DNA of 64,000 nucleotides from Candidatus Poribacteria bacterium (GTDB taxonomy: Bacteria > Poribacteria > WGA-4E > JAJDTR01), in the NCBI GenBank assembly GCA_965222225.1, contig CBDCTK010000002.1, positions 2,880,001 to 2,944,000 on the forward strand, given 5' to 3'. Positions within the stretch are counted from its first letter, which is position 1. Each line of letters begins with the position of its first letter. A program made the translations under genes and the position numbers. The notes under the pieces were generated by a model. The model did not search any database, was not told where the DNA came from, and saw only the letters and a list, made by a program, of their open reading frames with translations. Shown one piece after another: positions 25,235-61,720 of this stretch.

Positions 25235-25269
25235 GATCTCTATCGCCCTCCCTATCCGGTCGGTGGATC
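25235..25269. repeat. 35-nt structured element, family A (leftmost copy; see findings)
   Basis: GATCTCTATCGCCCTCCCTATCCGGTCGGTGGATC. Confidence 0.8.
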
Positions 25270-25390
25270 CTCCGGTTTTATCCAATCCGCCGTGCCATTA
25301 ATCAAACTACCCTCCCAACGAACCAAGCCAAGACTCCAACCTCCGAACTCGTCATTTCAAATTCTTTCTACATTTTTTTCTTTCGAGCAT

Positions 25391-25417
25391 AACCTCCAAC
25401 CTATACAGGGTGTCTAA
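25391..25417 (+). promoter_or_regulatory. Candidate ECF autoregulatory promoter AACCT-N16-GTCTAA
   Basis: Lies directly upstream of the ECF sigma gene and resembles AAC/GTC ECF promoters. Confidence 0.4.
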
Positions 25418-25445
25418 TTAGTAGTTTCACCGATGCTTTCATTCT

Positions 25446-27221: not shown

Positions 27222-27261
27222 TAGTGCATATGATGTCTCAATTATATCGTCCATTTTCTCT

Positions 27262-27610
27262 GTAGGAGGGAATCAAGCGAGTGAATACCGAATGATCAAC
27301 TGAGCGATTAGCGAAGGCGATAAAGATCCCCTTGCCCCGCCGAATTTGCACGGAGACAAGGTTGATTATTTCGCTCCAAGCAAGTCTCTTCACTTAATCC
27401 ACGTAATCAATGCACTTCCATTTTATAGAAAAGGTATTATTATCTATTCGCTTGCTCCCACCCCTGTGCAGGTAGGAGCGATCTCCGAATCGCGACCTGT
27501 CGGGAATCGGAAGGGATTTCTATCGCACTCGCTATCCACTCGCTTGATTCCTCCTACCAAATACACACGCCGTAAGGCATCTCTATCGGGATTAGCTATC
27601 TCCCTTGCTG
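27262..27610. repeat. REP hairpins carrying inserted family-A elements
   Basis: GTAGGAGCGATCTCCGAATCGCGAC and GTCGGGAATCGG..CCTCCTAC REP pair; family-A copies at 27294-27328 and 27515-27549. Confidence 0.7.
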
Positions 27611-27750
27611 CTCACTCTGTTGATCGTTCGGTTGATTCTCAACGGTTGACACCACCGCGGGTTCGTGTTATTTTTGGAGACGTGATTCGCAAACAATCCG
27701 ACAGATAGAAAGTCGCGTCCGCAGACTGCGGCAAGCCCGGAGCGTGGAAA

Positions 27751-28050
27751 ATGAGAGACGAAGATAAATCCCAAGTGCAACTCATCAAGGAATTGCAACT
27801 CATTCGTCAGTGCGTGGCGGAATTAGAGCAGGACAAAGTCGAATACCAGCGGCTAATGAAGCAGCTATTGCTCGAAAACGATGAGTCGGTTAGGGAGTAT
27901 TTCGACATTTACTTCCATGCCCAAGATATCATTGTCTCGGTTGATGTGGAGACGGAAAAAGTGCTCAAGTGCAATATGGCTATGATGGAAGTACTGGGCT
28001 ACAGCAGAGCGGAGATTGTTGGACATCCGATCTTTAAGTTAGGGACTTAG
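27751..28050 (+). pseudogene. N-terminal fragment of a PAS-domain sensor protein, truncated by IS1595
   Basis: MRDEDKS..QLI.EL coiled-coil, then a PAS start (N.A...LGYS..E.VG); the frame ends inside the IS terminal repeat. Confidence 0.75.
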
Positions 28051-29289: not shown

Positions 29290-29290
29290 G

Positions 29291-30929
29291 TTGATTATTC
29301 TGGATAATCATATTACCGATCTCCGTCCGCTTTCTAACCTTACAGAACTTGTTGAACTCAATGCACGAGATAATCCCATATCCGATGTGTCTCCCGTATC
29401 CAACTTGCGTAAACTGAAGTACCTCGATTTGAGCCGATGTAATATCGTTGATTTGCAACCACTTGCAGACCTCACACAGTTACACGTGTTGCAACTAAAT
29501 CACAACAACATTGTGGATATACGACCGCTTGCTTCGCTGACGAGGCCCTATAAACTTGAATTACAGCACAACATTATCACCGATTTTAGTCCGGTTTCCC
29601 ATCTCGCACTCGACACATTCTATTTCGATCAATATTGCATTTTACCGCGTCTGCCGCTCTTACCCCGTTTAACCGGGATGACCTTCTCTACCGTATTTAT
29701 GCCTACGTGGTTCATGCCTCACGATTCCGGCAGCCATATGCCTTTTAGTCCCGCAGACCAGTTTTTTGACATGGCCTATCGTTCTGCCGACAGTCAATTA
29801 GTTTCAGATAATCTCTATAATTCTATTGCAATCCGTGACGCCATCATCGCAAATAATCCTACTACAGTTTTTCTCGCCTACCTCCCTTGGCACAAAGCAT
29901 ATTTTACCCAATTACCCAAACATTCCATGTTATGGGCTCGCAACATCAGCGGCGAATTGCTCCTTCAAGATTTCGCCACCGGCGCCTATCTCGATTACAC
30001 CAACCCACTCGCGCGAGCCCTTGTCGTTAAAATGGCATCTGACATCGATAAATGCGGACTATACGACGGCATTGTACTCGACGCCTGGGGCTACGATTTG
30101 TTGCCGACGGATGTTTACAGTTCCGAATCGCAAACAGCCGCCCGCCTCGCTCTCGTAAAAGAAATTCGTGCCGCCACACGCCCAAATTTTTTAATACAAG
30201 TCAATTCGAATAGAAATCGTATCCCCGACACAGCACTGTATATCAACGGTCTCTCAATGGAAACCGGCATTCCCGGTTGGTTTGATGAGACCGACGTGCA
30301 TCTCGCCCTGCGTGAAACTGCACACGCACTACTTTGGGCTGAATCTAACCTTCGTTATCCACAAATAAACGGTGTGGTTGGTTGGGCTATACTCAGTCAA
30401 TCTCCCCACAGCCTCGAAAATCAACGTTGGATGCGTCTTCTTACAGCTTTAACGCTTACTCATTCTAACGGCTTTACGTTGTACCAGCACGGTCCAAATA
30501 CCTGGTATGACTTTTGGGATGCGGACTTAGGGCGTCCAGTGGGGGAGAAGGCACAGGTGTACGAGGGGCGATCAAGCGAGGGGACAGCGAGTGCGATAGA
30601 GATCCCAGGGCTTTATTCGCGAGTACACGAATGGATGGGCAGTGTACAATCATAGCGGGGCGCCACAGGTCATCACATTGCCGGAGGAGGTGCAGGGGGT
30701 AGCCAGCGGACTAGTAAACGTAGAGCATGCGCTGCCGAACCTCGACGGCGAGATGTATTTGCGGGTGACGCCGAAGAATCCGGCGGATGTGAACGGGGAC
30801 GGGGTGGTGAATATTTTGGACTTAACGCTGGTGGCGCAGGGATTTGGGACGGATAGTTTGAAGGGGGATGTGAATGGGGATGGGGTGGTGAATGTGTTTG
30901 ATTTGGTGTTTGTGGCGAACCAGTTCTGA
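29291..30929 (+). pseudogene. LRR / putative glycoside hydrolase-like / dockerin protein, 5'-truncated by the IS and frameshifted near 30616
   Basis: Begins mid-LRR at the IS end; close paralog of 58583..61024; 'CTTTATTCGC' lacks 2 nt relative to GLYIRE; frame resumes in ORF 30642..30929 with the dockerin DVNGDGVVNILDL. Confidence 0.85.
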
Positions 30930-31182
30930 ATCACGGATTAAACGGATTACGCGGATTAGAGGCGGACAATCCTATAATCCACGACAGTTTTGAAATCCTG
31001 AAGCCAACGCATACGCATAATTAGGCAACTGACGCCGGTTGCATCGAAGACAATTGGTCGAATTCAATCAGATCAAGCGAACGATCAAGGAAGCGAATAG
31101 CGACCGCGATAGAGATCTTCTAGTGAGTGCGATAGCAAATCCGCGAAATCCTTTAATCCGCGAAAATCCGCGATTCAGACAA
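30925..31182 (+). mobile_element. MITE-like element, family D (TCTGAATC...GATTCAGACA), containing nested family-A copies
   Basis: Terminal inverted repeats with 9-nt-period GGATT/AATCC units; ~95-nt core shared with 55341-55506 and 61517-61720. Confidence 0.7.
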
Positions 31183-32669: not shown

Positions 32670-33721
32670 TTAAGAACCTGTTTGAAAAATAGATGTCAAA
32701 TCCATTTTGAAGCTGTTGAGTGCTATAATCTGTAGCCCCGCTGGGGCTTAGGTGCGTGGGGTTTCGGCGTTTCCTACACACCTTCATGGATCTCTATCGC
32801 AGTCGCTATTCGCTCCCTTGATCGCACTCTGGGGCTTTTAGAGGCTTGTGCGCCGTGCGCACCCTACAAGATCCCTGATGAAAACCTTGGTTTTGAGGCG
32901 AAATGTATTACAAAAATGAAATCTCAAACAGGTTCTAAGTGTGGGAATGAAACTTGCTACAGGAACGCGTGTTTGCCCTATGAGTCCAAGTTGATTGCAA
33001 TGATACCCAATATGGTTCTGGTGGCTCCGATGTATGCGTTCTTGACACAACTGCTTGACACTTCCAACTACCGGGTGGTTTCTGCCGAGATTATAACAGA
33101 TATAGTCATTTCAATCAAGAGTTATGCATATAGGATTTACACTGTTCGGTTTGTAGGAGCGAGTTTTGCTCGCGATAGGAGGTCGCGATTCGGAGATCGC
33201 TCCTACAATCCTTTGGATGCGTCACTGCGTAAGTCCTAAGTTAATTTCATTTCCACACTTAATGGTTAATTCGCTAAGTATTTATGTATTATCCGGACAT
33301 CAAAGCCCCAGAGGGGCGACACTTGGATTACGTCCCAATCGAAAACATCACAAAGCGAGAGTTAGGCGGCTGCATCAATTTGGACCATGTATTCGAGACA
33401 CATCTGACCTTTCTGGATCTCTATCGCACGGGATCTACTATCGCCCTCCCTAATCAGTCGGCTGATCGTTGTTCACTCGTTTGATCGCAGTGCGCACCCT
33501 ACAAGATGGCAATTCAGAATTGTACTTTTGTACAAAGTCGAGCTTAGCACGGGGAACTCTATCGCACTCATTAGCCATTCGCTTAATTCTTCGTCATCCA
33601 GCCAGTTGATCGCTCGCTTGATCGCGGTAAGAGAGGAAATCGGGATTTGACATCGAAGAATTTCGTCGGCGCAAAAACGGAAGCAGAATAGTTGGGTTTC
33701 ATTGCATTCAACCCAACCTAC
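32670..33721. repeat. Composite repeat zone (REPs, IS-end-like modules, families A and C)
   Basis: GTAGCCCCGCTGGGGCT, GTGCGC..TGCGCACCCTAC, GTAGGAGCGA..TCGCTCCTAC, TAGGATTTAC..GCGTAAGTCCTA and GTTGGGT..AACCCAACCTAC units; no credible ORF. Confidence 0.75.
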
Positions 33722-36904: not shown

Positions 36905-37897
36905 GTGGAGGCGCTCCGATCAACCGACTGATTAGGGAGGGCGATAGTAGATCCCTCAAGCGAGTGGATAGGGAGCGATCAAAGGAATGGATAATGACTG
37001 CGATAGAGTTTCCATACCCAAGTTGCTACTTAGCTCGACTTTGTACATTTGAACGTCATAACGGACAGCGTCAATTAGGCGTTGAAGAAGAACGAGGGAG
37101 ATTTTGATGGCCTGGCTTATTTAGTTGACCATTGAAGAATTCCCCAGCGGTTTCTGATACCATACAACCTGTCGCCCCGCCGGGGATTCGGTGTGGGGTG
37201 ATTCGCTGTTGCTATACACCTATCGCCTCTCTGGGGCTTACAAAGGCCTCTTGGATCTCTATCGCGCGCGCTAACCGCTTGCCTGATTCTATTCGGTCAT
37301 TTGATCCGTACAAGAAGCGGTGGGCATTGCCCACCCTACAAATGTACAAAGTCGAACTTAGAACCTGTTTGAATAATTGGTGGCAAAGCCATTTTTGGTC
37401 ATTTGTAGAAAGTTTTTTCATGTTTTCATTGTGGTCTGCTACATACCTATGGGATTGCTATCGCACTCACAATTCGTTCGTTTGATCCCCGCTGGGGGTT
37501 AGGTGCACGGGGTTTTGGTGTTTCTATACACCTTCATGAATCTCTATCGCATTCGCTATTCGCTCCCTTGATCCCACTCTGGGGCTTTTAGAGGCTGGTG
37601 CGCAGGGGATCTCTATCGCAGTCATTATCCATTCCTTTGATCGCATCCTACAAGAGATTGCCTTGATTGGCAGTGTTTCTAGTCATTGCAACTAAGAATT
37701 ATACATTTAGGATTTGCGCTGTTCGGTTTAGAGTGGCGCATTTTATTGCGCGTATTTTGTCGGAGCGAGCGTTACTCGCGACGGGGAATCGCGACCAGGA
37801 GATCGCTCCTACAAAGGCGTTTTCGGGTAGAATGAAACGTCGGAAGTTCTTTTTTTTGTACGCGATTTCTTTTGGATTTCCGCTCAACCCAACCTAC
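36905..37897. repeat. Composite repeat zone similar to 32670-33721
   Basis: 37488-37604 is a near copy of 32735-32855; at least six family-A copies; several REPs. Confidence 0.75.
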
Positions 37898-37912: not shown

Positions 37913-40900
37913 TTAGAACCGTTGCTCCAGCTTCAAATCGACCCCATACTTCCCATGCTCACTGCGCTCCCCTGTAACCGAGAGCCCACGCTTAATCTGA
38001 TATTCCACTTCGATACGCGGCTCCCCGTGAATTTTCAAGGTTGAGGAATAAGAAATGAGAAGACGATCGAAAATTTCTTTGGAAAGAAGGACTCGCGGTT
38101 TTCCGATGTCGGTGGGGTCATGGTCCCACACCACTTCGTGCATGCCGATGAGTTGCGCCAATCGGTTTTGGAGATACTGTTGTGACGGGCGGACGATCAA
38201 GGGCACGGACGCGCCGAGGGGTGACCTTTCACGTGCGGCGTCGCCGGTTGCCAGAATGAAAAGAATTTGCATCTGGCTCAAATTGTACTCTTCGCTGGCG
38301 CCGCGGTACAACACATCCGCGTAAAATTGGGAATGATGCCTCTGCTCCTCCTGCTTGAGGTAACCGCTGAAATGCGCGCGGATTTCCACGTCCCGTGTGT
38401 GATCGCTGCCGTCGGTCGAGATAACCTGAACCCGCTCGATTGGGTCTAAGGTTTTGGCATTAATCTCATAGCGGGGATTAAATTCATAGGGGTTGGTGTT
38501 CTCGACAAACGAACCCTCCTCAATTGTAAACCGATAAATAATGCCGTTAAGCGAGAACTCGCTCGTTGGCAGCAAATTCACTCGCCCGATGAACGACGGT
38601 TTCTGTATCCGCCCGGAAAGTTTTCCGTCTATCGACACCTCAATATCAAGCTTGCCCAAATTGGATATTACCCGGAAATCGTTCGGGGCATGCACGTCCA
38701 AATCGAATCTCAGGTCCCTCATGACGGGGTAATCGGACCAGACTTCAAGGTGAATTTTGGCTGCTTGATCGAACCACTCATTAACGAGATCCTGCCAATG
38801 TCGTTCGTAAGTACCTTCTAATATGCGAACTGAGCCCTGAATCGGCGGCAAGCCTTCAACGGAGTCGGCGGAATTGGCAATCATCAGATTCCCGCTTTCG
38901 CCGCCCCCGACTGCTCCTTTCATGAATAAGTTCACTTCGCCGCATGTGATGCGGTAGAGTCCGTAGTCTTCAAAGGTGGAACCCCCTTCCAGCGTGGCCG
39001 TGAGATCGAGGTATCCCACGCGGTGCCAGTTGGAGGTACCGTAACCGTCCGCTCGGTAAGCCCCTCCGTTCAAAACCCCTTCCCAGTGCCGTATCTGAAA
39101 TCCTTCATTCGTAAAATCCACGGTAACGTCGGTATTCTTGACGTTGATATTTGCATCTGGTAGATCAAATGCCAGGTCGGCGAAGTTGGCGACGCCTTTG
39201 AGTCGAGGCGCGTCAATCTCCCCTCCAATGGTGACATTAACGCTTCCGGAGCCTTCGGCGAACCCCACCTGCTTCTGGATAAGGGGTAGAAATTCCAAAT
39301 CTTCAATGAATACATCCAATCTCCCTTCGATGGTGTTGGCTTGACCGGGAAGGTTCGAGGTTGGCAGATTCGCATGCAGCCTGTCGAGAGACAAGTCGAG
39401 AGGAATCGATCCGGAGAAGTCCGCACGATTGGATCCGATAACAAAACGAGCCGGTTCTTCGGTATGCAGCTTTCCATTCCGGTAAGCAATCCTACCGACG
39501 CACTCGTCTACACGGGCGCGGTTAATTGATAGATTGAAGGTGTCCCACCGGCAAGTGATTTCGGGGTTTTCGCCCGTGCCGCGCACGTGCAACTCTGAAT
39601 TGAGGCGCCCGTCAACGGCATACCCGTCGGGAAGAAAATCGGAGACAAAGCCAAGATTCAGGTTGCTCGTACGCATGTCGAGAACGTAGTGACCCGTGTA
39701 CGGCGCTTCGTCATCTGCTATTACCGCTTCCTTGCCGGAGACCGACCACTGACCGTTCTCCACTACCAACGTGAAACGCTCCTTCTCACCGATGCCAACA
39801 CGTTGGTCCTGTAAGATGAATCCATCGGCAAGATTAAGCTGCCCGGCGGCTAAATGACACTCGAGTGGGTTGAGGTTTCGGACTTCATAGTCAAGAGCGT
39901 TGATGAAAAGTTCTTCAACCTTTAGCCCGCCCGCCGCATAGCTGGCAAGGTTATGCGGAGTTAACGGCAAAATAATCTTGGGAAGCCACGGCGCATCGCC
40001 CGCCGTGACAAACCGCTCTATCGGGAGGCTTAAATGTCCTTGCGCGGTCACATGTCCGGTCAGATTGGCCGCCATCTTCGCCGGCAGAACGTTTCGGGCG
40101 AAGTCGGAGAGTTGCGCCTGTTGGGCATGAAAACTCCGAACTTCAACGGTTCTGGGGAGGAGTCCGTTCATATCGCAATAAACGTTCAGCGCATACTTGC
40201 CTTCGCCGATTTCAAAGCGAAACTCCGGTACGCGGAGCTCATCCTGTTCCACTCGCAGGCTTAGCCGTGCGTCCGAAATCGGTGTATCAAAGTTGGTGAA
40301 TTTGACCATCCCACCTTGGAGGGATGCCGTGCCGTATAAATGCGGCGCGGCGGTTGTGCCGCGTATCTTGAGGTTTATATCGGCTATCCCGCTGGTGGTT
40401 TCGAGTTGTGGCTGAAACCGGGAGAGAAAACTGAGATCGGCTTCTTGACTGCGTATTTCGAGATTAACGGGCTGGTCGAGGAATCGGTCTTTCAAGTCGT
40501 GCGGTTGGAGTCGCAGATCAATCGGTATGGTGCCCTGTATTCTCAAATGGTTTCCATAACCGCTCAATTGGGTCTGCTTAATCTCGAATACACGCTCGCG
40601 ATATTCCACCTGTCCGGTATCCGTGAACTCCAGGAAATGAGACGTGAGTTGATCGCCGACGCTGCCGTGCGCCTCCCACTCTGCATCAATGACGGGATTA
40701 GCGATATTCCCGCCTACATGAGCCACGCCGGTCAAACTCGCTTCAACCCCGACGGTGCTGTTGAACAGCGGCACCGTCATCCCGGGCAACAGGGCGCCGA
40801 ACGGAAAGCCCGTGAGTTCAAAATCAAACTCCAAATCACCATCCAAGTTGATCCAGCCGCGGGTGTCAGCCCATTTGGCGATGTTCGGGGATGGGCGATT

Positions 40901-43900
40901 GCCGGATTGATTGGCGACTACCGAATCCTCGTTTTCCTCTGCTTCGTTGCTCTCCATACTGCTAGGCGACCCAATTTGGAACGAGTTTATCCGGAACGTG
41001 CCATCGGCTAATTCGGCGCGAATCGGTTCGACGGTTAGCATGTCGCGGTTGTTAAAATCTACGTGTAAATTGTCAAGCGTCAGTTGCGCCGAAATTCGAT
41101 CAAGGCTGTAGCCGTCCCCGTCAAGTTCGAGCCGCGAATCGACTATCGCTCGGGTAATCTTGTCGGAGAACAGATACTCGGAGATTTCGTGACTGCCGAT
41201 CTTGTTGACGAAGTGCCTCGCGAAATCGGTTAGATTGATGCCTTTTCCATCTAGCTGAAGTTGAAAAGAGGGATCAAGCGACCGAATAGGGAGCGCGATA
41301 GTGATCCCCTCAAGCGACGATTCTCCCTCCTCCCTTTCATTGGAATCGCCCTCCGCGTACGACAGAAAGAGATCGATGAGTGTGGTTTGCGTCTTTGTTC
41401 GAGGCAGCTGCCAATTCGCCTTCGCTTGATAGCGCCCCTCTCCTATCTGCCATGCGGCGGTATCTGCGGTAACTGTCAGCAGCTTGTCGGATGTCCCGTC
41501 TCCGCCAACGACTCGCAGATCAAGGTTTATGTTTTCAAGCGGCTGAGGGTAATCGAGAACGTGCACTTTGGCGTCGGTTACGCCGATTGATGCGTCAACC
41601 CTCGGGTCGCTGAACGTTCCGGTGAGATGTGCGTCGAGGTTTAGCTGTCCCTCCGTAGACAGCTTAATCGTAGGTTGCCAATCGTGGATTGCCTCGAAGA
41701 GCTGCTCTAGATTCATGGAACCCAAATCAAAATCCACGATGTATGTTCGGAGATCGACGGTTGAGGATTGAAGGCTATCGAGATCCACGGCGGCAGTGGC
41801 TTCGGCTTCCACCGGCACGCCCGTCAGGAGAAAATTGAAGGGTTCGACTGTCAGCGTTTGGTCGGCATAGGCAACCTTGCCCGACGCCTCGCTTACGACG
41901 ATCGGAACGGGGGCGTTTTCAACGCGGAGTTCGGGAATCGCCCACTCAAGCGTGAGTTCGGGGTTTGCGAGGCTTCCGGCGCCGATGAGCTTGTAGCTGG
42001 CGCTTCCGGTTAGGGTTGCGGGGAGGTCCAACACGCCGCATAAGGGTTCAAGCCGGAAGTCTCGGGATTCGGCGACAAAATCAATCGACTGATCGTCTAG
42101 CGTCAAGCAGCAAGTCACGAACGGGGTGTCAACGGTTTTCCCTTCTAAATTGGCGAGCGAGAAGGAATCAACTCTCCAGATGTTGTCGATAAAACCGAAC
42201 CTGATTGGCGCCGCATTTGTCAACCGCCTGCCGTTGACTTCGAGTGCGAGGGAAGAGATCGACGTATCAAGCGTGAATTGTGTCAAATCTAGCAGTGTGC
42301 CGCTGAGTTGGAATGTGCCGTTAGCCGTCGCCGGAATCTCTTTTAAGGCATTGTGAAATATGCCTAGTATGGGACCGATGTTTATCCCGTTGCTCCGCAT
42401 GAAAAGTTGGTAGGGGTTGCCGAGGGTCGATTCTATGATGCCGCGTATCTGGCTGCTGCCGTCAAAGCCGATGCCTTCGAATCGGAGCGCGTTCTCGGTG
42501 AACACGCCGCTGATTCGAATCTCGGGGGAATTACGATTGCCATCACCTTCAGGGATTATGGTGTGATTGTCGTAGGTGATGTCGGAGAAATCGAAATTGA
42601 CATCAACTCGCGGATTGGCGGCATTGCCTTCACCGGTCGCGTGCACGAGGAGGTCGGCGTCCAACAGAAAATCCGGTTCCGGTATAGCGCGGGCAATCGC
42701 AAGTTCTTTCAATCGCATCGGATCGCTCTGAAACTGGAGTTGATAGTCAAGCTCCGGCGTGATTTGGAAATTGATGACGCCGCGTTGTTCCCGCGCGAAC
42801 ACCTCAAAGTCGGACACGTGCACGGTGTAATCCTCTATGACTAGGGGAAGGATTAGGGGGTCGAGCGCCAAATCCCAGGCTTTCGCATCCGCGACGTTGA
42901 GCCTGCCGCGCCCGTCAATGCCGTTTAACGTCCCGTCAAGCGCCAGATTGCCGGTGACAACACCCTCGACGGGGTACTCGGCGCCTGCCAATAGCCGCAC
43001 ATAATCCGAAATCTGAAAGGGATGGGCACGGACGCGGAACTCGACGGGGATATCGCCCTCGACTTGAGCGACTCCGTCCAGGGTCAATAGGCTCTCCCCT
43101 TTGGATAGGCGGACGGGTTGGAGGGTTACGCTGCCGTTCCGATAATGGAAGTTCGCTGTCAACACGCCGATGGGCACATCGAAAAGACTGGCTTCGGGGA
43201 TTTCCAGAAATCCGGTTAGCGGAACATCCGATGTAATCTTTCCGCGGAGTGTCGCGTCGCCGCCGAGATTGGGGGCGCGTATGATTTCCATCAATTTGCC
43301 GGTGTCGATGCGCCGTATCTCCAGATCGAGATTCAACGCCCCTTCTAGACCGGCTGCGCCGTTGACTCGGATGTTGGCGTCGTCGAGATTGGCGGCAACT
43401 TGGAGTTGGTTCCCCGCTATCTCAAAACTGGCTTCCGAAACGCGGATGCGAACATCGTTCATCGTGGCTTGGTCGATTTTCAACCCGCCCGTAAGCGTTA
43501 AGGAATCAGCGATCGCCGATTTCGGATTCTCTTCGCTTTGCGGCGACACCTCTTGAGTTGTCGGCAGCGAGCCGCTGATGTGGAGGCGGCTGTCGAGGAT
43601 TCCAGTCATGGTGAGAAAGTCTTCGGGAAGGTCGATGAACACTGGGAGGATTTCCTCGACGTTGGCGCCCTCAAGCTCTGCCCAGCCATCGTAGGCAATC
43701 GGCGATTCTGCGTTCTCTTCGGATGAAGGTGTCTGCGCCGTGGTATCCCGAGGCGATTGCTCGGAAATGGACATTAGAGAAAAAAGACTTCTTCCCAGGC
43801 CCCCGAAACGCGCCTCCAAACCCGCGGTGAGTTTGCCGGACGCGAGCGTCCCATTCACGTCGGTCAACTTAAGCGCGTTCCGGTTGAATTCGGCATTGAC

Positions 43901-45169
43901 GTTGAGTTCCTCCAACTGGAAGTTGTTGAAGGCTGCCGCGCGCAACTCGAGGTGCAGGTTGCCGCTGATATCCGATGATGTCCCCTTCGCTTCGAGGTTT
44001 ATCCGCGCATTCCCGGCGACCTCGAATCGGTCGGGGAGGAGATTTTGGAAGTCACCCAAATCAATATCCAAATCGATTCTGGTCTCCAGATAGCGCGACG
44101 CCTCCGTGAAATCGCGGACTTTTCCGGCAATCGCCAAGCGCGACTTCCCCATCGCAAGTTGCATCTCTTTCAACTCACCCTCGTCCGCGAGCAGCTTGAA
44201 CCGGGTTTTGAACTCATGAATCTTCGTCTTTACGCCATTTAGCTCGAAACTCCCATCTTGAATAGCCAAGTTTCCGGTGTGCTCCCACCGATCAAGCGGT
44301 CCTTCGACCCGACTTTGAATGCCGCTGACAGCAATCTTCAGATTACGTTCGCCGTCTTCATAGTTCACGTACCCATCGACAAACTCGATATTGGAGATTC
44401 CGAATTGGAACGGCAGGCTTGAATCCGATGTGGAATCGGTTTGCGGCGCAAGTGAAGTTAGGTTGAGCCGCCCATCCTCCCGCATACGAAGGTTGAACTC
44501 GGGTCGCATGAAACGCAGCTTGGTGATGTGGAATTTGCCGCCTATCAATCGCCAAAGATCGTATTTTAACACAATCTCTTCCGCGGAGATGAACGGGTGA
44601 TGTCGAAGAAGTCTATCCGAGATTTCAAACCGCTTGAGGCTCAAGCCCGTGAAGATGTCCCCGGAAAGATGGCCGATGCTGACAATGTATTTGAAGACAT
44701 TGAATAATCGGCGATCATCAAATCGCCAGTTTCCCGTCTCGTTGCCATCGCGCCTTATGGCGTATCGCCATTTGTGGTTTTTGTCAGAGACGACCCACTC
44801 TCCAAGTTTGTCAAGGAAGGCAACGGAGACGGCAGGGGAGAATTCGACGCCGTAGTCGGCAAATGCGGATTGCAACACCTCCGGAAGCCGCCCATTATCC
44901 AACGTTACGGCATGCAGATCCGCATACTCTACCGTAAATAGAAGAGGCTGTTCGAATTGCTGACCCAGCCGCGTTTCGAGGGTTGCGCGAATTTTTTCAA
45001 GGAGATAGGCGGAGCGCAGAAACACGACAGCGCCGATGATGAGGCAGATAGGAATTGTTGTGAGTAGTGCTATGACTATGTTTCGTCGGCTCATTGGTGT
45101 AAAGGAATGTCCGGTGACCTGTGACCAACAAAAACGGGTGTCTCTATTTTCCCCGTTTACTGGCGACAA
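37913..45169 (-). CDS. tamB: Translocation/assembly module TamB-like protein (AsmA-like N-terminus, DUF490-like C-terminus)
   Basis: 2418 aa, N-terminal TM anchor, recurring 'G....P...G' beta-taco repeats, C-terminal VEYQI...GVDLKLEQRF. ATG 45094 is an alternative start. Confidence 0.82.
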   Translation of the reverse strand: MSPVNGENRDTRFCWSQVTGHSFTPMSRRNIVIALLTTIPICLIIGAVVFLRSAYLLEKIRATLETRLGQQFEQPLLFTVEYADLHAVTLDNGRLPEVLQSAFADYGVEFSPAVSVAFLDKLGEWVVSDKNHKWRYAIRRDGNETGNWRFDDRRLFNVFKYIVSIGHLSGDIFTGLSLKRFEISDRLLRHHPFISAEEIVLKYDLWRLIGGKFHITKLRFMRPEFNLRMREDGRLNLTSLAPQTDSTSDSSLPFQFGISNIEFVDGYVNYEDGERNLKIAVSGIQSRVEGPLDRWEHTGNLAIQDGSFELNGVKTKIHEFKTRFKLLADEGELKEMQLAMGKSRLAIAGKVRDFTEASRYLETRIDLDIDLGDFQNLLPDRFEVAGNARINLEAKGTSSDISGNLHLELRAAAFNNFQLEELNVNAEFNRNALKLTDVNGTLASGKLTAGLEARFGGLGRSLFSLMSISEQSPRDTTAQTPSSEENAESPIAYDGWAELEGANVEEILPVFIDLPEDFLTMTGILDSRLHISGSLPTTQEVSPQSEENPKSAIADSLTLTGGLKIDQATMNDVRIRVSEASFEIAGNQLQVAANLDDANIRVNGAAGLEGALNLDLEIRRIDTGKLMEIIRAPNLGGDATLRGKITSDVPLTGFLEIPEASLFDVPIGVLTANFHYRNGSVTLQPVRLSKGESLLTLDGVAQVEGDIPVEFRVRAHPFQISDYVRLLAGAEYPVEGVVTGNLALDGTLNGIDGRGRLNVADAKAWDLALDPLILPLVIEDYTVHVSDFEVFAREQRGVINFQITPELDYQLQFQSDPMRLKELAIARAIPEPDFLLDADLLVHATGEGNAANPRVDVNFDFSDITYDNHTIIPEGDGNRNSPEIRISGVFTENALRFEGIGFDGSSQIRGIIESTLGNPYQLFMRSNGINIGPILGIFHNALKEIPATANGTFQLSGTLLDLTQFTLDTSISSLALEVNGRRLTNAAPIRFGFIDNIWRVDSFSLANLEGKTVDTPFVTCCLTLDDQSIDFVAESRDFRLEPLCGVLDLPATLTGSASYKLIGAGSLANPELTLEWAIPELRVENAPVPIVVSEASGKVAYADQTLTVEPFNFLLTGVPVEAEATAAVDLDSLQSSTVDLRTYIVDFDLGSMNLEQLFEAIHDWQPTIKLSTEGQLNLDAHLTGTFSDPRVDASIGVTDAKVHVLDYPQPLENINLDLRVVGGDGTSDKLLTVTADTAAWQIGEGRYQAKANWQLPRTKTQTTLIDLFLSYAEGDSNEREEGESSLEGITIALPIRSLDPSFQLQLDGKGINLTDFARHFVNKIGSHEISEYLFSDKITRAIVDSRLELDGDGYSLDRISAQLTLDNLHVDFNNRDMLTVEPIRAELADGTFRINSFQIGSPSSMESNEAEENEDSVVANQSGNRPSPNIAKWADTRGWINLDGDLEFDFELTGFPFGALLPGMTVPLFNSTVGVEASLTGVAHVGGNIANPVIDAEWEAHGSVGDQLTSHFLEFTDTGQVEYRERVFEIKQTQLSGYGNHLRIQGTIPIDLRLQPHDLKDRFLDQPVNLEIRSQEADLSFLSRFQPQLETTSGIADINLKIRGTTAAPHLYGTASLQGGMVKFTNFDTPISDARLSLRVEQDELRVPEFRFEIGEGKYALNVYCDMNGLLPRTVEVRSFHAQQAQLSDFARNVLPAKMAANLTGHVTAQGHLSLPIERFVTAGDAPWLPKIILPLTPHNLASYAAGGLKVEELFINALDYEVRNLNPLECHLAAGQLNLADGFILQDQRVGIGEKERFTLVVENGQWSVSGKEAVIADDEAPYTGHYVLDMRTSNLNLGFVSDFLPDGYAVDGRLNSELHVRGTGENPEITCRWDTFNLSINRARVDECVGRIAYRNGKLHTEEPARFVIGSNRADFSGSIPLDLSLDRLHANLPTSNLPGQANTIEGRLDVFIEDLEFLPLIQKQVGFAEGSGSVNVTIGGEIDAPRLKGVANFADLAFDLPDANINVKNTDVTVDFTNEGFQIRHWEGVLNGGAYRADGYGTSNWHRVGYLDLTATLEGGSTFEDYGLYRITCGEVNLFMKGAVGGGESGNLMIANSADSVEGLPPIQGSVRILEGTYERHWQDLVNEWFDQAAKIHLEVWSDYPVMRDLRFDLDVHAPNDFRVISNLGKLDIEVSIDGKLSGRIQKPSFIGRVNLLPTSEFSLNGIIYRFTIEEGSFVENTNPYEFNPRYEINAKTLDPIERVQVISTDGSDHTRDVEIRAHFSGYLKQEEQRHHSQFYADVLYRGASEEYNLSQMQILFILATGDAARERSPLGASVPLIVRPSQQYLQNRLAQLIGMHEVVWDHDPTDIGKPRVLLSKEIFDRLLISYSSTLKIHGEPRIEVEYQIKRGLSVTGERSEHGKYGVDLKLEQRF

Positions 45170-48950: not shown

Positions 48951-49155
48951 TAGACTCCATGACAGGTTGAGACAACCGTCAAATTATACCATTTCTCTAA
49001 AATTCAAGTGCATTGATTGCGTGGGTCAAGTAAAGAAACTTATTTGGATCGGAGTAAGAGGCCTTGTCTCCACGCAAAGTGGGCGGGGGAAGGGGATCTC
49101 TATCGCATTCGCTATTCGCTCATTTGATCGTCGCTGGTGCGTTCAAAGGCTGGTG

Positions 49156-49727
49156 CGCAGTGCGCACCCTACAAGATGGCAATTCGGAATTGTACTTTTG
49201 TACAAAGTCGAGCTTAGGGCCTGTTTGAATAATAGGTGGCAAAGCAATTTCGGTCACTTTGGGCGCGGCTTTTTCATGCTTTTGTGGTCGCCTGCTATAC
49301 ACCTGTCAGGATTTCTATCGTATTCGCTATTCGCTCGCTTGATCCCACGCTGGGGCTTTCAAAGGCTGGTAGGATCTCTATCGCGCTCATTATTCATTCG
49401 CTTGATCGCAGTGCGCACCCTACAAGATGGCAATTCGGAATTGTACTTTTGTACAAAGTCGAGCTTAGGGCCTGTTTGAATAATAGGTGGCAAAGCAATT
49501 TCGGTCACTTTGGGCGCGGCTTTTTCATGCTTTTGTGGTCGCCTGCTATACACCTGTCAGGATTTCTATCGTATTCGCTATTCGCTCGCTTGATCCCACG
49601 CTGGGGCTTTCAAAGGCTGGTAGGATCTCTATCGCGCTCATTATTCATTCGCTTGATCGCAGTGCGCACCCTACAAGATGGCAATTTGGAATTGTACTTT
49701 CGTACAAAGTCAAGCTTAGGGCCTGTT
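49156..49727. repeat. 251-bp tandem repeat, about 2.3 copies, built from REP, IS-end-like and family-A modules
   Basis: Units start at 49156, 49407 and 49658. Confidence 0.9.
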
Positions 49728-51515: not shown

Positions 51516-51659
51516 TGTGTTTTATTTTCATTAATATTTACATATATTGATTGCATGTTACGCGATTTGACAATTGAAGATTGCTGCGACAAACCATTTG
51601 CCTGTAGGAGCGATCAAAGGAATGAATAATGACTGCGATAGAGAACTCTATCGCGTTCC

Positions 51660-52460
51660 CTATTCGGTCACTTGATCCTCCAAAGGCACCCGAATCCGCT
51701 CAATGGACAGCGCCTTCCCCGTATCATCATCTACCTCAATCACGACGCCGCAAAGTATAACGTCCCTCTTCGCCACATTATGCCGTATCGGAAGCATGGT
51801 GGTGAAATGGTAGAGCACATCCTCTTTTCGGGTGCCGATGACGGAATCATGGGGGCCTGTCATTCCAACGTCGGTGATGTATGCCGTACCGCCCGGGAGA
51901 ACCCGCTCATCCGCGGTTTGAACGTGCGTATGCGTCCCAACCACCGCCGCCACCCGCCCGTCGGCGTGCCAGCCCATGGCTATCTTTTCGGCGGTTGCCT
52001 CCGCGTGGAAATCCAAAAACAGACAAGCAACCTTCTCCCGAATCTCGGGCAAAATCTCGTCAAGCGTTTGAAAGGGATTGTCGAACCCTCCCATATAGAC
52101 TTGACCGGCGATATTTATCACGCCTAGCCGGTCTCCGCAGGAATTTGAAACCACTGTCCAGCCGCAGCCGGGAGCGCTTTTCGGATAATTTGCGGGCCGC
52201 ACGAGATTCGACTGATTGTCTATGAACGTCAGAATTTCACGCTGCGCCCAAACATGGTTGCCGGTTGTAATCGCATGAACACCCGCCCCCGATAGCTCAT
52301 TAACAATCGCTTTTGTTAACCCTTTGCCTCCCGCGGCGTTCTCGCCGTTCACCACAGCGAAGCTGAAACGCCCGTAACGCTCCGACAGTAGTGGGAGCAG
52401 CGTCAAAACTGCTTTTCGCCCCGGCTGTCCGACAATATCTCCAACGAACAATATCTTCAT
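51660..52460 (-). CDS. ymdB: YmdB-like (TIGR00282-type) metallophosphoesterase
   Basis: GDIVG.PGR, NGENAAGG.G, GNH, DFHAEAT.EK, GTHTHV and TDVGMTG motifs. Confidence 0.94.
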   Translation of the reverse strand: MKILFVGDIVGQPGRKAVLTLLPLLSERYGRFSFAVVNGENAAGGKGLTKAIVNELSGAGVHAITTGNHVWAQREILTFIDNQSNLVRPANYPKSAPGCGWTVVSNSCGDRLGVINIAGQVYMGGFDNPFQTLDEILPEIREKVACLFLDFHAEATAEKIAMGWHADGRVAAVVGTHTHVQTADERVLPGGTAYITDVGMTGPHDSVIGTRKEDVLYHFTTMLPIRHNVAKRDVILCGVVIEVDDDTGKALSIERIRVPLEDQVTE

Positions 52461-52586
52461 AATAGTGATGCGTTGCAGAGGAATAGCAGAAACCGAGTTT
52501 TCAAGAAGAACAAGAAATCTCTATCGCACAGGATTTTCTATCGGGAGTTCTATCGCCTTCCTAATCCAGTCAGTTGATCGGTTTCG

Positions 52587-54292: not shown

Positions 54293-54310
54293 TAGCCTAA
54301 AAGCCCTTTC

Positions 54311-55340: not shown

Positions 55341-55506
55341 TGTCTGAATCGCAGGATTTGCTATCGCGCTCATTATTCATTCGCTTGATCGTCTTTGATT
55401 CAACCGGCGTCAGTTGCCTAATTATGTGTATGCGTTGGCTTCTGGATTCCCAAACTGTCGTGGATTAAAGATCACCCGCTTTTAATCTGCGCAATCTGTG
55501 TAATCC
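55341..55506 (-). mobile_element. Family-D MITE-like element, partly eroded
   Basis: Shares the core and the GATTCAGACA end with 30925-31182. Confidence 0.65.
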
Positions 55507-58280: not shown

Positions 58281-58368
58281 AGTGATGAGTGACCAGTTGC
58301 CAGTGTCCAGTAAAAGCCAAACATTTTCTTGCCGTTACTGACCACCAACCACTGACCACAAGCCACTG
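58281..58368. repeat. Inverted pair of 7-nt-period tracts (CAGTNNC / ACTGACC)
   Basis: GAGTGAC-CAGTTGC-CAGTGTC-CAGT versus ACTGACC-ACCAACC-ACTGACC-ACAAGCC-ACTG. Confidence 0.65.
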
Positions 58369-58437
58369 GGTTTCTAAGACTTCCACTAACGGGCTTGTCT
58401 TTCTTCCACACCCTATGGTTATTACCGTGAACTGAAG

Positions 58438-58582
58438 AGAAACTCTATCGATCAACTGAGTGAATAACGAAGGATTAAGCGAATGAATAATGAGCGCGAT
58501 AGTGAATCCTGATAGAAAGTCCTACTCCCTATTCAGTCGCTTGAGGGATTTACTATCGCCTTCGCTATCCGCTCAGTTGATC
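58438..58582. repeat. Cluster of nested and truncated family-A elements in both orientations
   Basis: Multiple TATCG heads and TTGATC/TTGA tails; the last copy abuts the stop codon at 58583. Confidence 0.75.
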
Positions 58583-61024
58583 CTATTTCACAATCACCAT
58601 CCGCCGCGCCGCCGCATAATCCCCCGCCCGGAATTGATAAATATAAATCCCGCTCGCAACCGATTCCCCGTCTTCGTTCCGCCCGTCCCAATACGCCGCC
58701 TTTCCACGCTCCGCGTAATACCCCGTCGCCTGATTCCCGAGCGCCAACCGCCGTACCAGCGTCCCCTTCGTGTCATAAATTGTAATCACCACTTCCGCCT
58801 CTTGAGCGAGACGATACGGGATCCACGTCTCCGGATTGAAGGGGTTAGGGTAATTCGGCAACAGCGCCGTCTCTTTAGGCGTCAACGCCGCAAGCAACTG
58901 CTCAAGGAAGCGGATTCCCCGTTGAAAATTCGGGTCAACGACACCTAAACCCTGTGCGCCTGCAAGCCATCTCTCGACATCCGCAGCGCTAATAATCGAC
59001 GGGTCCAGGGAATCTGCCGAAGGCGCAGCTCTGCCATCCCCGATTGCCCCGGCAACCTGAACAAGATCAAACACATTCACAACCCCGTCCCCGTTTACAT
59101 CCCCCCGCAAGCCATCTCTTCCGAACGCCTGCGCGACCACCACCAAATCCAAAATATTCACCACCCCATCGCCGTTGACATCCGCTGTATTCTTCGGCTT
59201 CACACGCAAGTACATCTCCCCGTCAAGGTTAGCTAGCGCGTGCTCCGTGTTCACCAACCCGCTGGCGACGCCCTGCACCTCCTCTGGCAGCGTGATGACC
59301 TGTGCTTCGCCGCTGTGGTTGTACACCGCCCATCCGTTCGTGAACTCGCGGATATAAAGCCCTGGGATGTCTTCGTTGAATAGTTGGGTCTTCTCGCCGA
59401 CCGGTCTGCCCAAGTCCGCATCCCAAAAGTCGTACCAAGTGTTTGGCGCTGCTTGGTAAAGAGTGTATCCCTCACTAAGCGTAAGGCTCAGTGTCGTAAG
59501 GAAGCGCATCCAGCGCCGGTTTTCTGGACTGTCGGATGGTTCGTGGTGAATCGCTTCGCCTACAACGCCGTTAATTCGAGGTGTTCGGAGATTATGTTCG
59601 GCCCACTGAAGTGTGGTTTCTGTTTCATGTAGCGTGCGATCGCGCTCAGTGTATCCGCTGATAAACCAGTTTGGGATTCCCGTTTCCATGGAAAGACCGT
59701 TGATGTAGGGTGCAGTGTCGGGGATGCGATTTCGATTCGAATTCACTTGTATTAAGAAATTGGGGCGTGTTACGGCCCTAATTTCTTGTACCAGAGCGAT
59801 GCGCGCGGCTTTCTGTGATTCAGAACTGTAGAGATCGATCGGCAACAAATCGTAGCCCCACGCGTCGAGTACAATGCCGTCGTATAGCCCGCATTTATCG
59901 ACATCGGAAACCATTTTTACGACGTGAGCGCGAGCGTGCGGGTTTGTATAGTCTAGATCTGCGCCGGTTTCAAAATCTTGCAAAAACAATTCGCCGGCGG
60001 TGTTCCGAGCCCAGAGGGACGATTCACGCGGTAGCTGGGTAAAAAAAGCCTTGTGCCAAGGTATATACGCGATAAAAATGGTATTGGGATTCGTGGCGAT
60101 TATTGTGTCGCGGAGTGATATGGAGTGCTCAAGGTCCGTAGAAATTAACCGGCTGTCAGCGTTACGATATATCATGTCAAAGAATTGGTCGGCAGGACCA
60201 AAAGGCATTTGGCTGCCGGAATCATACGACATGAGCCAAGTGGGCATGAATACAGCGGGGAAGGTCATATCGTTTAAGCGAGGTAGTAACGGTAAGGGGG
60301 GCATCTCGCAAAACTGGTCGTATGCAAACTCACTTAAACTTAACCCGTCAAGCGGGCTATGATCATTTATAACATTGTGTTCGATATATAGTGTTTCTAA
60401 ACTCGTCAAATTGGCGAGCGGGCGAACGTCGGTGATATGGTTGCGTGCGATATAGAGTCTTTCCAAATTGACTAAATTGGCGAGCGGGCGAATGTCCATG
60501 ATACGGTTGTCTGCGAGATAGAGTCTTTCCAAATTCACCAAATTCATGAGTGGGCGAACGTCGGTGATACGATTCGCCGTTAAGTTTAAGCCAAGGAGAT
60601 GTGTTAGATTTGATAGTGGCGAAACATCGACAATATTACAAAAACTCAAATCAAGATCTGCAAGTTGCACGAGCTGCCTCAATGGTCGCAAATCTGACAC
60701 AAGTCCAAATTGCAAATACAGACGTTCTAACTGCGTTAACGATGCAAGCGGAGTTAAATCCGACATTTTATTCCGGCCAAGCCGGAGGTCTCGGAGCGAT
60801 ACGGCGAACTCCATTCCCGTGAGCTCTACTATCCCTGCGTTTGGTGCATTCAGCGCGTGTAGTTCTGCCATGCGCTGCTTTGTAATGTCGTCCCCCGGCT
60901 GAAGCTCCATTGCTTCTCGAAGTACCTGCTCCAAATTGGGATCGGGAATATGGATAACCTCTGCGCACACGGGCACAGTTGCCAGCATGCAAAACATCAA
61001 TACATAAAACATTTTCATAATCAT
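58583..61024 (-). CDS. Secreted LRR / putative glycoside hydrolase-like / dockerin / C-terminal sorting-like domain protein
   Basis: Signal peptide, IPDPNL cap, internalin-type LRRs, CGLYDGI..D.W domain, dockerin and NYPNPFNPETWIPY. Confidence 0.9.
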   Translation of the reverse strand: MIMKMFYVLMFCMLATVPVCAEVIHIPDPNLEQVLREAMELQPGDDITKQRMAELHALNAPNAGIVELTGMEFAVSLRDLRLGRNKMSDLTPLASLTQLERLYLQFGLVSDLRPLRQLVQLADLDLSFCNIVDVSPLSNLTHLLGLNLTANRITDVRPLMNLVNLERLYLADNRIMDIRPLANLVNLERLYIARNHITDVRPLANLTSLETLYIEHNVINDHSPLDGLSLSEFAYDQFCEMPPLPLLPRLNDMTFPAVFMPTWLMSYDSGSQMPFGPADQFFDMIYRNADSRLISTDLEHSISLRDTIIATNPNTIFIAYIPWHKAFFTQLPRESSLWARNTAGELFLQDFETGADLDYTNPHARAHVVKMVSDVDKCGLYDGIVLDAWGYDLLPIDLYSSESQKAARIALVQEIRAVTRPNFLIQVNSNRNRIPDTAPYINGLSMETGIPNWFISGYTERDRTLHETETTLQWAEHNLRTPRINGVVGEAIHHEPSDSPENRRWMRFLTTLSLTLSEGYTLYQAAPNTWYDFWDADLGRPVGEKTQLFNEDIPGLYIREFTNGWAVYNHSGEAQVITLPEEVQGVASGLVNTEHALANLDGEMYLRVKPKNTADVNGDGVVNILDLVVVAQAFGRDGLRGDVNGDGVVNVFDLVQVAGAIGDGRAAPSADSLDPSIISAADVERWLAGAQGLGVVDPNFQRGIRFLEQLLAALTPKETALLPNYPNPFNPETWIPYRLAQEAEVVITIYDTKGTLVRRLALGNQATGYYAERGKAAYWDGRNEDGESVASGIYIYQFRAGDYAAARRMVIVK

Positions 61025-61516
61025 TTATCTGGCACCCACCGCGGTTTCGCCTCGACGGGCGTTTCCTCCTTTTTCTCAAGCGGCGTTGCGCGCAGGATAG
61101 CCAACCCATCCTGTCGATACGCCGTATATCGGCCTTGAGCCTCGCCGTGCACCAGCTCGTTCAATGCCTGAGCCACGCCCGGCGTGTCCTCGTTGAAATA
61201 ATCGTGCAGCGCCAACCACCCCCCATCCACCAGATGTGACAAAATGCAACTTAGCTCCTTACGTGTCGGTTCATAATGGTGGCTGGAATCAATAAACGCC
61301 AAGCGTATGGGGGACCTCCAAAAATGCTGGAGGTATAAAACCGTATCCGATAATACGGGCGTAATGTGCTCGTGCAACCGAAACTCCCACAGGTTCTCGC
61401 GCATCTCGAAGTAAGCATCATCGAATAGCTGACGCAGCGGACGGTAGTCTTTTGTGTACGAATCGATCGCTACGAGCGGGTACTCGTGTAAATCGTCATC
61501 CCGTAGCGCGTGCCCG
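61021..61516 (-). pseudogene. Class I (Methyltransf_24-like) methyltransferase, 5'-truncated at a family-D element
   Basis: VAIDS, LAFID..H.YE and L..GG....HDY motifs are present; the Gly-rich SAM motif and a start codon are missing upstream of the element end. Confidence 0.72.
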
Positions 61517-61720
61517 TTGTCTGAATCGCGGATTTGCTATCGCACTCACTATCCGTTCGCTTGATTTGATTAAATTCGACCAATCATCTTCGATGCAACC
61601 GGCGCCATTTGCCTAATTATGCGTATGCGTTGACTTCAGGATTCCCAAACTGTTGTGGATTAACGGATTGCCCGCTTTTATCTGCGCAATCTGTGTAATC
61701 CGTTTAATCAGCGATTCAGA
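61517..61720 (-). mobile_element. Family-D MITE-like element
   Basis: TCTGAATCGC...GCGATTCAGA terminal inverted repeats; shared core; one family-A copy at about 61530-61566. Confidence 0.7.

Follow-up and report, generated by a model that had tools for sequence, protein, structure and literature searches.

Family A, an abundant 36-nucleotide insertional element of the REP class in sponge-associated Poribacteria

The locus and its repeated element

The window analyzed here is a 64-kb stretch of DNA from an uncultured, sponge-associated member of the Candidatus Poribacteria, part of an assembly of 5.70 Mb in two contigs. Much of it is studded with a short dispersed sequence, family A, which reads TATCGC...TTGATC on one strand and is a real, abundant insertional element of the class of repetitive extragenic palindromes (REPs). 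A first-pass annotation, made from the letters of the window, had reported more than 25 copies between 25235 and 61566 and none in the first 25 kb, and a pattern scan agrees on both counts: at up to two mismatches it finds 26 copies, all within 25241-61566, against a mean of 0.02 in dinucleotide-preserving shuffles, of which 0 of 100 reached 26. The copy-free first 25 kb is a dense block of same-strand housekeeping genes (DnaB, a RadA-like ATPase, the cysteinyl-tRNA synthetase CysRS, DprA, and others) with scant intergenic space. The copies, together with a gene that carries an in-frame insertion, are as follows.

25233..25269, plus strand: family-A copy, TATCGC strand on plus; 1 mismatch
27294..27330, minus strand: family-A copy; 0 mismatches
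27513..27549, plus strand: family-A copy; 1 mismatch
30570..30606, minus strand: family-A copy; 1 mismatch
31083..31119, minus strand: family-A copy; 1 mismatch
32787..32823, plus strand: family-A copy; 0 mismatches
33431..33467, plus strand: family-A copy, nested, with the truncated 5' module of an older copy before it; 1 mismatch; genome position 2913422
33552..33588, plus strand: family-A copy, degenerate; 2 mismatches
36918..36954, minus strand: family-A copy; 0 mismatches
36977..37013, minus strand: family-A copy; 0 mismatches
37451..37487, plus strand: family-A copy; 1 mismatch
37537..37573, plus strand: family-A copy in a REP-B-type hairpin, with paralogous empty sites; genome position 2917545
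37606..37642, plus strand: family-A copy; 0 mismatches
37913..45169, minus strand: TamB/AsmA-like gene, 2,418 aa, carrying the in-frame insertion
41272..41308, minus strand: family-A copy in the TamB-like coding frame; pattern match
41279..41350, minus strand: 72-nt in-frame insertion in the TamB-like gene, made up of most of copy 41272..41308 and 35 further bases
49093..49129, plus strand: family-A copy; 0 mismatches
49308..49344, plus strand: family-A copy, first unit of a 251-bp tandem duplication; 1 mismatch
49371..49407, plus strand: family-A copy in the 5' stem of a GTAG REP (REP-C), with 11 paralogous empty sites; genome position 2929379
49559..49595, plus strand: family-A copy, second unit of the 251-bp duplication; 1 mismatch
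49622..49658, plus strand: family-A copy, REP-C stem site, second duplication unit; genome position 2929630
51612..51648, minus strand: family-A copy; the orthologous intergenic region in a congener (G005) is only ~31 nt
51641..51677, plus strand: family-A copy, head to head with 51612..51648; pattern match
52543..52579, plus strand: family-A copy after two truncated 5' modules; block missing in one congener (G003), another hairpin variant there in G005
55354..55390, plus strand: family-A copy; 0 mismatches
58473..58509, minus strand: family-A copy; 1 mismatch
58546..58582, plus strand: family-A copy; 0 mismatches
61530..61566, plus strand: family-A copy; 1 mismatch

Within the 251-bp tandem duplication at 49308-49658 the copies at 49316 and 49567 are identical, as are those at 49379 and 49630, so part of the copy number stems from local duplication.

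The whole genome yields 1,113 matches at up to three mismatches (564 exact, 317 with one, 138 with two, and 94 with three), or 1,019 copies at up to two, and the reversed, non-complemented genome, used as a control, yields 0. Distribution across the phylum is patchy: family A is present in 17 of the 151 Poribacteria genomes sampled and was not found in the other 134; none of 100 genomes of the phylum's largest family has a copy. Each of ten genomes of the source genome's own genus (genus 1) holds ~570-1,270 copies, each of four genomes of a genus from another family (genus 4) holds ~200, and a sister genus holds 3. A single genome of a further genus (genus 6) has 21. An exact-pattern scan of a large contig collection matched at least 101 stretches and, among the matches listed, all titles are those of Candidatus Poribacteria metagenome-assembled genomes (MAGs) except one, a Bdellovibrionales MAG (L030); this one exact hit of the pattern, with its 19 specified bases, in DNA from outside the phylum is probably due to chance, ~4 chance matches being expected in 596 Gb on both strands. 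The same exact pattern found 0 matches in viral contigs. With ~1,000 copies per genome across at least 14 species, family A amounts to a large natural data set.

Hairpin anatomy and covariation

Family A is ~36 nt long, its conservation running from 8 nt 5' of TATCGC to ~2 nt 3' of TTGATC, and 19 of the 29 core positions are near-invariant. Along the purine strand its anatomy is 5'-GATCAA-NN-GA-NN-G(R)ATA-NN-GA-NN-GCGATAGA-RATCYY-3', which would fold into two 2-bp mini-helices around a tandem G·A/A·G apposition, with a five-base loop and with the invariant tags lying unpaired outside. The first-pass annotation had proposed that the variable dinucleotides pair, the outer two with each other (V1 with V5) and the inner two likewise (V2 with V4). 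This complementarity is now well founded: among 1,010 distinct copies, including 30-nt flanks, mutual information computed over all column pairs is highest for the four predicted pairs, 10-18 (1.19 bits), 7-21 (1.00), 6-22 (0.79), and 11-17 (0.43), the fifth-ranked value being an effect of neighboring columns. A formal covariation analysis of 118 copies from the window and other Poribacteria genomes (six or more genomes) found 85.2% of cells paired versus 52.2% in shuffles and a score of 0.869 versus 0.263, with 0 of 500 shuffles reaching either value and slid controls scoring at most 0.175.

Watson-Crick combinations make up 93% at 10-18, 91% at 7-21, 83% at 11-17, and 71% at 6-22, and nearly all of the remainder is A·C as read on the TATCGC strand (24% at 6-22 and 14% at 11-17), where G·T accounts for 1-2%. 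Because A·C is common and G·T rare on that strand, the purine (GATCAA) strand, on which alone G accepts C and T alike, is the one under pairing constraint, as had been surmised. The strict pairs are the two that adjoin the GA/GA step, which (as TC/TC on the other strand) is kept in 98-99% of copies; wobble is accepted at the outer and the loop-closing pair. The earlier view that the element is selected on structure rather than sequence thus holds for its first half, pairing being kept by compensatory change, but not for its second, given the 19 near-invariant core positions.

Outside the core the picture changes. A basal stem of GATC paired with GATC, also part of that annotation, is not supported: its upstream half is poorly conserved, shows no covariation, and is occupied by an AAGAC-type module in a second genus. 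In that genus (L023, L027, L029, L036, L043, L059, L065, and L069; 4.7-4.9-Mb genomes) the TATCGC...TTGATC core is unchanged, but (R)AAGAC or AAAAAC takes the place of GGGATCTC in the 8 nt that precede it, so the upstream module is lineage-specific. A position-by-position logo lacks GT[AG]G on both strands; its tags are TCTATCGC and TTGATC, and on the pyrimidine strand the element ends in TTGAT.

Filled and empty sites

The insertional record comes from within the genome itself. Ninety-two copies have an empty counterpart elsewhere, boundaries being defined by exact 12+12-nt flanks abutting a 37-nt block; where the filled site holds this block, the empty site holds 1-4 nt (rarely up to 8). The replaced segment is TGC (23 cases), GC (20), CGC (14), TC (10), or similar; its last base is C in 90 of 92 cases, and its last two bases are GC in 68 of 92. 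Filled and empty sites differ by one unit, and no pair has a target-site duplication. On the simplest reading, a 36-nt insert goes in immediately 5' of a C and costs the target 0-3 bases at the opposite end, without any duplication; typical targets on the pyrimidine strand are T|CGC or G|C. An automatic prefix/suffix boundary parser called 69 of 88 cases "imperfect" because the hosts are themselves repeats.

Most host sites lie in other repeats of the genome, among them three REP families that we label REP-B, REP-C, and REP-E. The loop and stem sites of REP-C account for 18 and 19 copies with 8 and 11 hairpin variants, REP-B for 4 copies (4 variants), REP-E for 3 (3 variants), other GTAG REPs for 6 (6 variants), and other repeats for 17. 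A further 25 copies, of 18 variants, sit in other family-A copies, and such nesting explains the many truncated 5' modules that are followed by a full unit. Recurrent sites are always hit in one orientation, and the different variants found at one site speak for repeated hits. Since identical composites also exist, 92 is an upper bound on independent events.

Comparison between genomes adds to this record. None of the five congeners compared has the 72-nt insertion of the TamB-like gene, and one of them is 98-99% identical on both flanks. Units of the family-A type can sit in frame in the gene of a large envelope protein. Across seven orthologous regions from six species, copies hardly ever agree in presence, position, or variant, though at the species level the intergenic alignments are too diverged to define junctions. 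Empty sites thus occur both within the genome and among congeners, and the proposal that family A is a very small non-autonomous element inserted many times is borne out by the filled/empty pairs, the TamB-like insertion, and the differences in orthologue occupancy. As a separate matter, the TamB-like gene between 40800 and 41800 is 98-99% identical to its counterpart in G005 (L181), and the neighboring genes are 84-92% identical; recent recombination or transfer between the two species could account for this excess.

This record bears directly on whether family A is instead a static, selected motif, such as a site for a nucleoid, methylation-related (GATC), or replication-associated protein. 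Its invariant sequence blocks, including one near-invariant GATC, its enrichment in intergenic DNA, and a strong replication-strand bias like that of architecture-imparting motifs would suit such a role, but 92 exact-flank filled/empty pairs, nested copies, in-frame insertion into a gene, positions that are not conserved between species, and the 134 phylum genomes in which the element was not found make it very unlikely. It is possible that family A acquired a host role secondarily.

Genomic setting and strand orientation

By crude calls of open reading frames (ORFs), 871 of 1,019 copies are intergenic, 93 lie inside ORFs, and 55 overlap an ORF end, in a genome that is ~20% intergenic by the same calls. 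In 693 of 1,016 copies (odds ratio 4.5) the TATCGC strand is the locally G-rich one, and so it is in 338 of 506 when one copy is kept per cluster. Neighbors at most 400 nt apart are co-oriented in 264 cases and inverted in 76, so that arrays run head to tail. The cumulative GC skew of contig C2 is jagged, with at least six polarity switches rather than one minimum and one maximum, and gene-strand and repeat-strand biases track the local skew along the contig; either many large inversions or assembly joins in the MAG would produce such a profile.

Transcription leaves no such imprint. Between co-directional genes the two strands would appear in the transcript 288 and 309 times, an unbiased split that makes an RNA role tied to neighboring genes unlikely. 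The broader idea that family A is an RNA element (a small RNA, terminator, or mRNA stabilizer) whose covariation reflects RNA pairing with G·U draws on the wobble pattern, which is compatible with G·U. Tandem G·A pairs are, moreover, common in RNA. We nevertheless judge it highly improbable: orientation tracks GC skew instead of flanking genes, the fold is very weak, no T-run follows the hairpin, and a scan of both strands of the 64-kb window against Rfam at gathering thresholds gave 0 matches.

Coexisting REP families

Once family A is masked, the commonest 11-mers of the genome come from GTAG-tagged hairpins, and each clade of REP-associated tyrosine transposases (RAYTs) is flanked by a REP family of its own. 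A 157-aa IS200-like protein is flanked by REP-B (CCTGTCGCCCCGCTGGGGCTT) and a paralogous clade by a ATATCGCTCC variant; a 190-aa RAYT clade, found only in genus 1, is flanked by the GTAG REP REP-C, and a 180-aa clade by GTAGGTTGGGTTGA. A RAYT gene of the source genome that is interrupted by TAG is flanked by CTGTAGGAGCGATCTCC. Two classical RAYT genes are in fact broken in this genome and intact in congeners: C2:3088913-3089326 (L116/L144) has an in-frame TAG and CTGTAGGAGCGATCTCC REP flanks, and C2:1545573-1545923 (L205) lacks the first ~70 codons and has GTAGGGTGCGCA REP flanks. The REP-C RAYT is truncated here and the REP-E RAYT has a stop.

Family A is aligned with these repeats. Its purine strand runs along the GTAG strand of REP-C in 43 embedded copies versus 0 in the opposite sense, and in 113 versus 3 cases for nearby markers; the C-rich strand carries the GTAG strands of four GTAG REP families in 59-77% and the purine strand of family A in 74%. 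Family A thus behaves here as one more REP family, with GATCAA...GCGATAGA replacing GTAG, and GTAG REPs and an untagged family have one replication-strand polarity in common. An uncultured, sponge-associated phylum therefore carries a dense and layered REP population.

So close an association raises the question of whether family A is mobile itself, or ever was, rather than a passenger in REPs that were moved by their own RAYTs and multiplied by local duplication. The commonest hairpin variant (64 of 881 copies) sits in the REP-C loop, often with identical flanks; two copies in the window are doubled by the tandem duplication; and the REP-C RAYT, though truncated in the source genome, is present in four other genus members. 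Against this, REP-C halves adjoin only ~9% of copies, many hairpin variants occupy the same site of the same host repeat, 25 filled/empty pairs are insertions in other family-A copies, and the TamB-like insertion and insertions in low-copy repeats (e.g., in the context GCACAA|TC|TGTTAG) have no REP-C around them. We therefore regard a purely passive family A as quite unlikely.

Candidate enzymes

The first-pass annotation had placed the mobilizing enzyme elsewhere. The genome does encode several Y1/HUH transposases, of both the RAYT and the IS200 type (5 matches to the Pfam model Y1_Tnp and 7 to the NCBIfam RAYT model), but none is dedicated to family A by its flanks. Inverted family-A copies lie within 250 nt on both sides of three Y1 loci, namely a gene for a 157-aa protein (RAYT-157), the truncated REP-C RAYT, and a remnant at C2:3560268-3560543, compared with 43 of 4,127 crude genes overall; at 200 nt or less, 33 genes are so flanked, and 2 of these 33 are Y1 genes.

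The best candidate for the mobilizer is RAYT-157, an intact IS200-like Y1 protein encoded at C2:3080255-3080728. It scores 65.8 bits against the IS200/IS605 transposase model NF033573 (cut-off, 55), and its nearest solved structures are the TnpA proteins of ISDra2 and IS608. An HUH-like "HIHIL" and a tyrosine region, "RYIKNQ", can be read by eye. The motif T[A/G]TCGC directly before the hairpin is common to REP-B and family A; for family A it is both tag and preferred target, T|CGC being the commonest site. Around the RAYT-157 homologues of genus members, flanking family-A copies nearly always lie on the minus strand upstream and on the plus strand downstream. In a tree of 17 homologues of at least 150 aa (four shorter rows were excluded), a clade with 100/98 support unites six genus-1 rows with one genus-4 row, and the genus-6 rows, which come from genomes that gave no family-A pattern match, stand apart from it.

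Two other candidates were set aside. The Y1 remnant at C2:3560268-3560543 is tightly flanked by inverted copies, yet six open-frame relatives in congeners have no family A within 1.5 kb. The 190-aa RAYT is flanked by family A in three of five genomes, but its constant flank is REP-C, into which family A inserts. A 395-aa ORF at C2:2702925-2704112 (plus strand) also lies between inverted family-A copies; by eye only, its N terminus looks Cas1-like.

Other features of the window

An IS1595-family DDE transposase gene (minus strand; Pfam DDE_Tnp_IS1595, 126 bits) lies at 28317-29171, and its presence in the window might suggest that family A is a MITE (a miniature transposable element with inverted repeats) left by a DDE transposon. 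This origin is exceedingly improbable, and the junctions already contradict it: terminal inverted repeats that match an insertion-sequence end are lacking, as is a target-site duplication; 36 nt is far below MITE size; and insertion is strand-specific in its orientation. Across lineages, the ends of the element are not conserved as inverted repeats. The IS1595-family gene is situated in a low-GC stretch (28001-30000; 43% G+C versus ~50% in the rest of the window) and probably represents a recently acquired insertion sequence.

Eukaryote-like repeat proteins are encoded at 25446-27221, 29291-30655, 33756-36875, 58583-61024, and 61716-63662. They include leucine-rich repeat (LRR) proteins with dockerin and a possible type IX secretion system (T9SS) sorting tail, a 1,039-aa WD40 protein, and an extracytoplasmic function (ECF) sigma factor fused to CarboxypepD_reg domains.

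How family A may move

We consider it probable that family A is a non-autonomous, ~36-nt element of the REP class, moved as single-stranded DNA (ssDNA) by a Y1/HUH transposase acting in trans. The folded hairpin and its tags would be recognized by the transposase much as hairpins are by IS200/IS605 TnpA and TnpA-REP, the unit itself would travel as ssDNA, and some copies probably spread as passengers in GTAG REPs.

Several observations weigh against this view. Nearest-neighbor DNA folding of four copies on both strands gave no stable hairpin, with minimum free energies of -0.1 to -2.6 kcal/mol and Z-scores of -0.18 to +1.40, no better than shuffles. DNA folding parameters model sheared G·A pairs poorly, and the hairpin, if it forms, relies on non-canonical pairs or on protein. 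The left junction is loose by 0-3 nt and its purines vary, unlike the clean junction of IS200/IS605 elements, and many of the 92 filled sites may be copied composites rather than independent events. The gene context is based on our own crude ORF calls. As to the enzyme, the first flanking repeat of each RAYT clade examined belongs to a different REP family, leaving no Y1 gene dedicated to family A; because family A inserts into REP hairpins, the inverted copies around RAYT genes are possibly a by-product. Homologues of RAYT-157 occur in genera taken to lack family A (7 of 7 genomes of genus 6 and 5 of 10 of genus 3), and two of the four genus-4 genomes, with ~200 copies, gave no RAYT-157 match. 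Finally, the pairing strand is mostly the C-rich one, i.e., the leading-strand template, opposite to the rule described for IS608 and ISDra2, in which the active strand lies on the lagging-strand template (PMC3333891). This puzzle of polarity could reflect preferential loss from the lagging-strand template or another strand-limited step.

Some of these points would fit insertion that involves no Y1/HUH transposase at all, either by microhomology-guided template switching at replication forks or through an enzyme family that has gone unrecognized. The junctions resemble microhomology joints, in that the target gives a variable number of the terminal GATC bases while 0-3 nt are lost opposite; in addition, a dedicated Y1 gene was not found among the RAYT clades examined, and family A and RAYT-157 do not strictly co-occur. 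Template switching alone, however, would not keep four covarying pairs, a strand-specific wobble, and 19 invariant positions over ~1,000 copies, and the replication-strand polarity and co-orientation with GTAG REPs point to the same machinery as theirs. TnpA-REP itself is reported to cut at more than one site, none of them sharply defined (PMC3333891). On balance, we think transposase-free insertion unlikely.

A bolder form of the Y1/HUH account can also be entertained, and we put it forward tentatively, as possible but doubtful. Family A might be a minimal, single-hairpin ssDNA transposon and a parasite of REPs, in which (i) the tandem G·A motif is recognized in place of the GTAG tag, (ii) the element homes into the extruded hairpins of other REPs and of itself, (iii) the singlet is moved by a borrowed IS200-like or a yet unrecognized enzyme, and (iv) the stems diversify under a pure pairing constraint. 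If this were true, REP-class integration would have its clearest natural record to date in the 92 internal filled/empty pairs.

Relation to known systems

No description of family A, or of REPs in Poribacteria, was found in the main texts of the literature searched, although the supplementary REP catalogues of PMC3733652 and PMC6006769 might hold a similar family. The first-pass annotation had not recognized a described family, and in that sense it still stands; yet the anatomy of a tag, a stem mismatch, and a covarying stem is of a known kind. Family A differs from known REP-class systems in its tag, its stem design, the mobility of singlets, its head-to-tail arrays, and its landing in other REPs.

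The closest parallels are with REPs and RAYTs. Like REPs, family A falls within 20-40 nt, is mostly intergenic, and reaches hundreds to a thousand copies. E. coli REPs are described as combining a 5' tag with a stem mismatch that is required and with stem variation that keeps complementarity, and TnpA-REP as needing both tag and mismatch, cutting only ssDNA, and doing so at loosely defined sites on either side (PMC3333891). Family A likewise combines an unpaired tag beside an imperfect hairpin, a conserved non-Watson-Crick spot, and complementary stem variation, as in the REPs of PMC3333891 and PMC3116915; the conserved GA/GA would be its stem mismatch, with a putative role in binding. Several REP families per genome, each with Y1 genes, are reported in PMC6006769, which fits the source genome. 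Canonical REPs, according to the same source, carry GT[AG]G, and some Y1 classes have atypical, weaker structures. Family A has neither a GT[AG]G nor a CGTC tag but tags of its own on the pairing strand (GATCAA and GCGATAGA), and its stem has four Watson-Crick pairs split by the tandem GA/GA. REPs in Pseudomonas have the doublet as their unit, only doublet excision having been caught and singlet excision not seen in the work described in PMC3116915. The family-A unit, in contrast to such REP doublets forming hairpins (REPINs) and to bacterial interspersed mosaic elements (BIMEs), is a singlet that clusters head to tail, not in inverted doublets, and, unlike in REP/RAYT systems, it is not the main flanking repeat of any Y1 gene in the RAYT clades examined.

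CGTC-tagged REPs (Di Nocera et al. 2013, PMC3733652) form a superfamily described as having no dedicated transposase. REPs are also reported there inside palindromes and in frame in ORFs. Family A is like REPs in inserting into palindromes and reading frames, and like the CGTC superfamily in having no dedicated flanking transposase even though the genome encodes Y1 transposases; the 7-9-bp stems, the CGTC tag, and the head-to-head dimers reported there have no equivalent in it. Small dispersed repeats (SDRs) of filamentous cyanobacteria, which Elhai et al. are said to have described in 2008, reportedly are hairpin units of ~21-27 nt with nested insertion and compensatory stem changes. They belong to another phylum and have another sequence.

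Non-autonomous derivatives are known in the IS200/IS605 family, in the form of palindrome-associated transposable elements (PATEs). Family A shares with IS608 and ISDra2 insertion without target duplication, at a short specific site and in one orientation, and its candidate enzyme scores above the IS200/IS605 model cut-off with ISDra2 and IS608 TnpA as nearest structures. Recognition of a subterminal hairpin on one strand and a link to the replication strand are also described for IS200/IS605 elements (PMC3333891, PMC2806898). ISDra2 is reported to insert 3' of TTGAT without duplication (PMC2806898), and this pentanucleotide is also the end of family A, which may be coincidence. Family A departs from these elements in being one hairpin with no distinct left and right ends, in having 36 nt, no coding capacity, and one imprecise junction, and in carrying its pairing strand mostly on the leading-strand template.

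Multiplication of REPs is still argued from indirect evidence, namely doublet excision in Pseudomonas (PMC3116915) and in vitro cleavage and models in E. coli (PMC3333891). Family A offers dozens of filled and empty versions of sites in one genome, recurrent hits by distinguishable variants, and a clear strand rule, so that target choice, junction chemistry, and the role of the G·A/A·G apposition become directly testable with oligonucleotides and one small enzyme.

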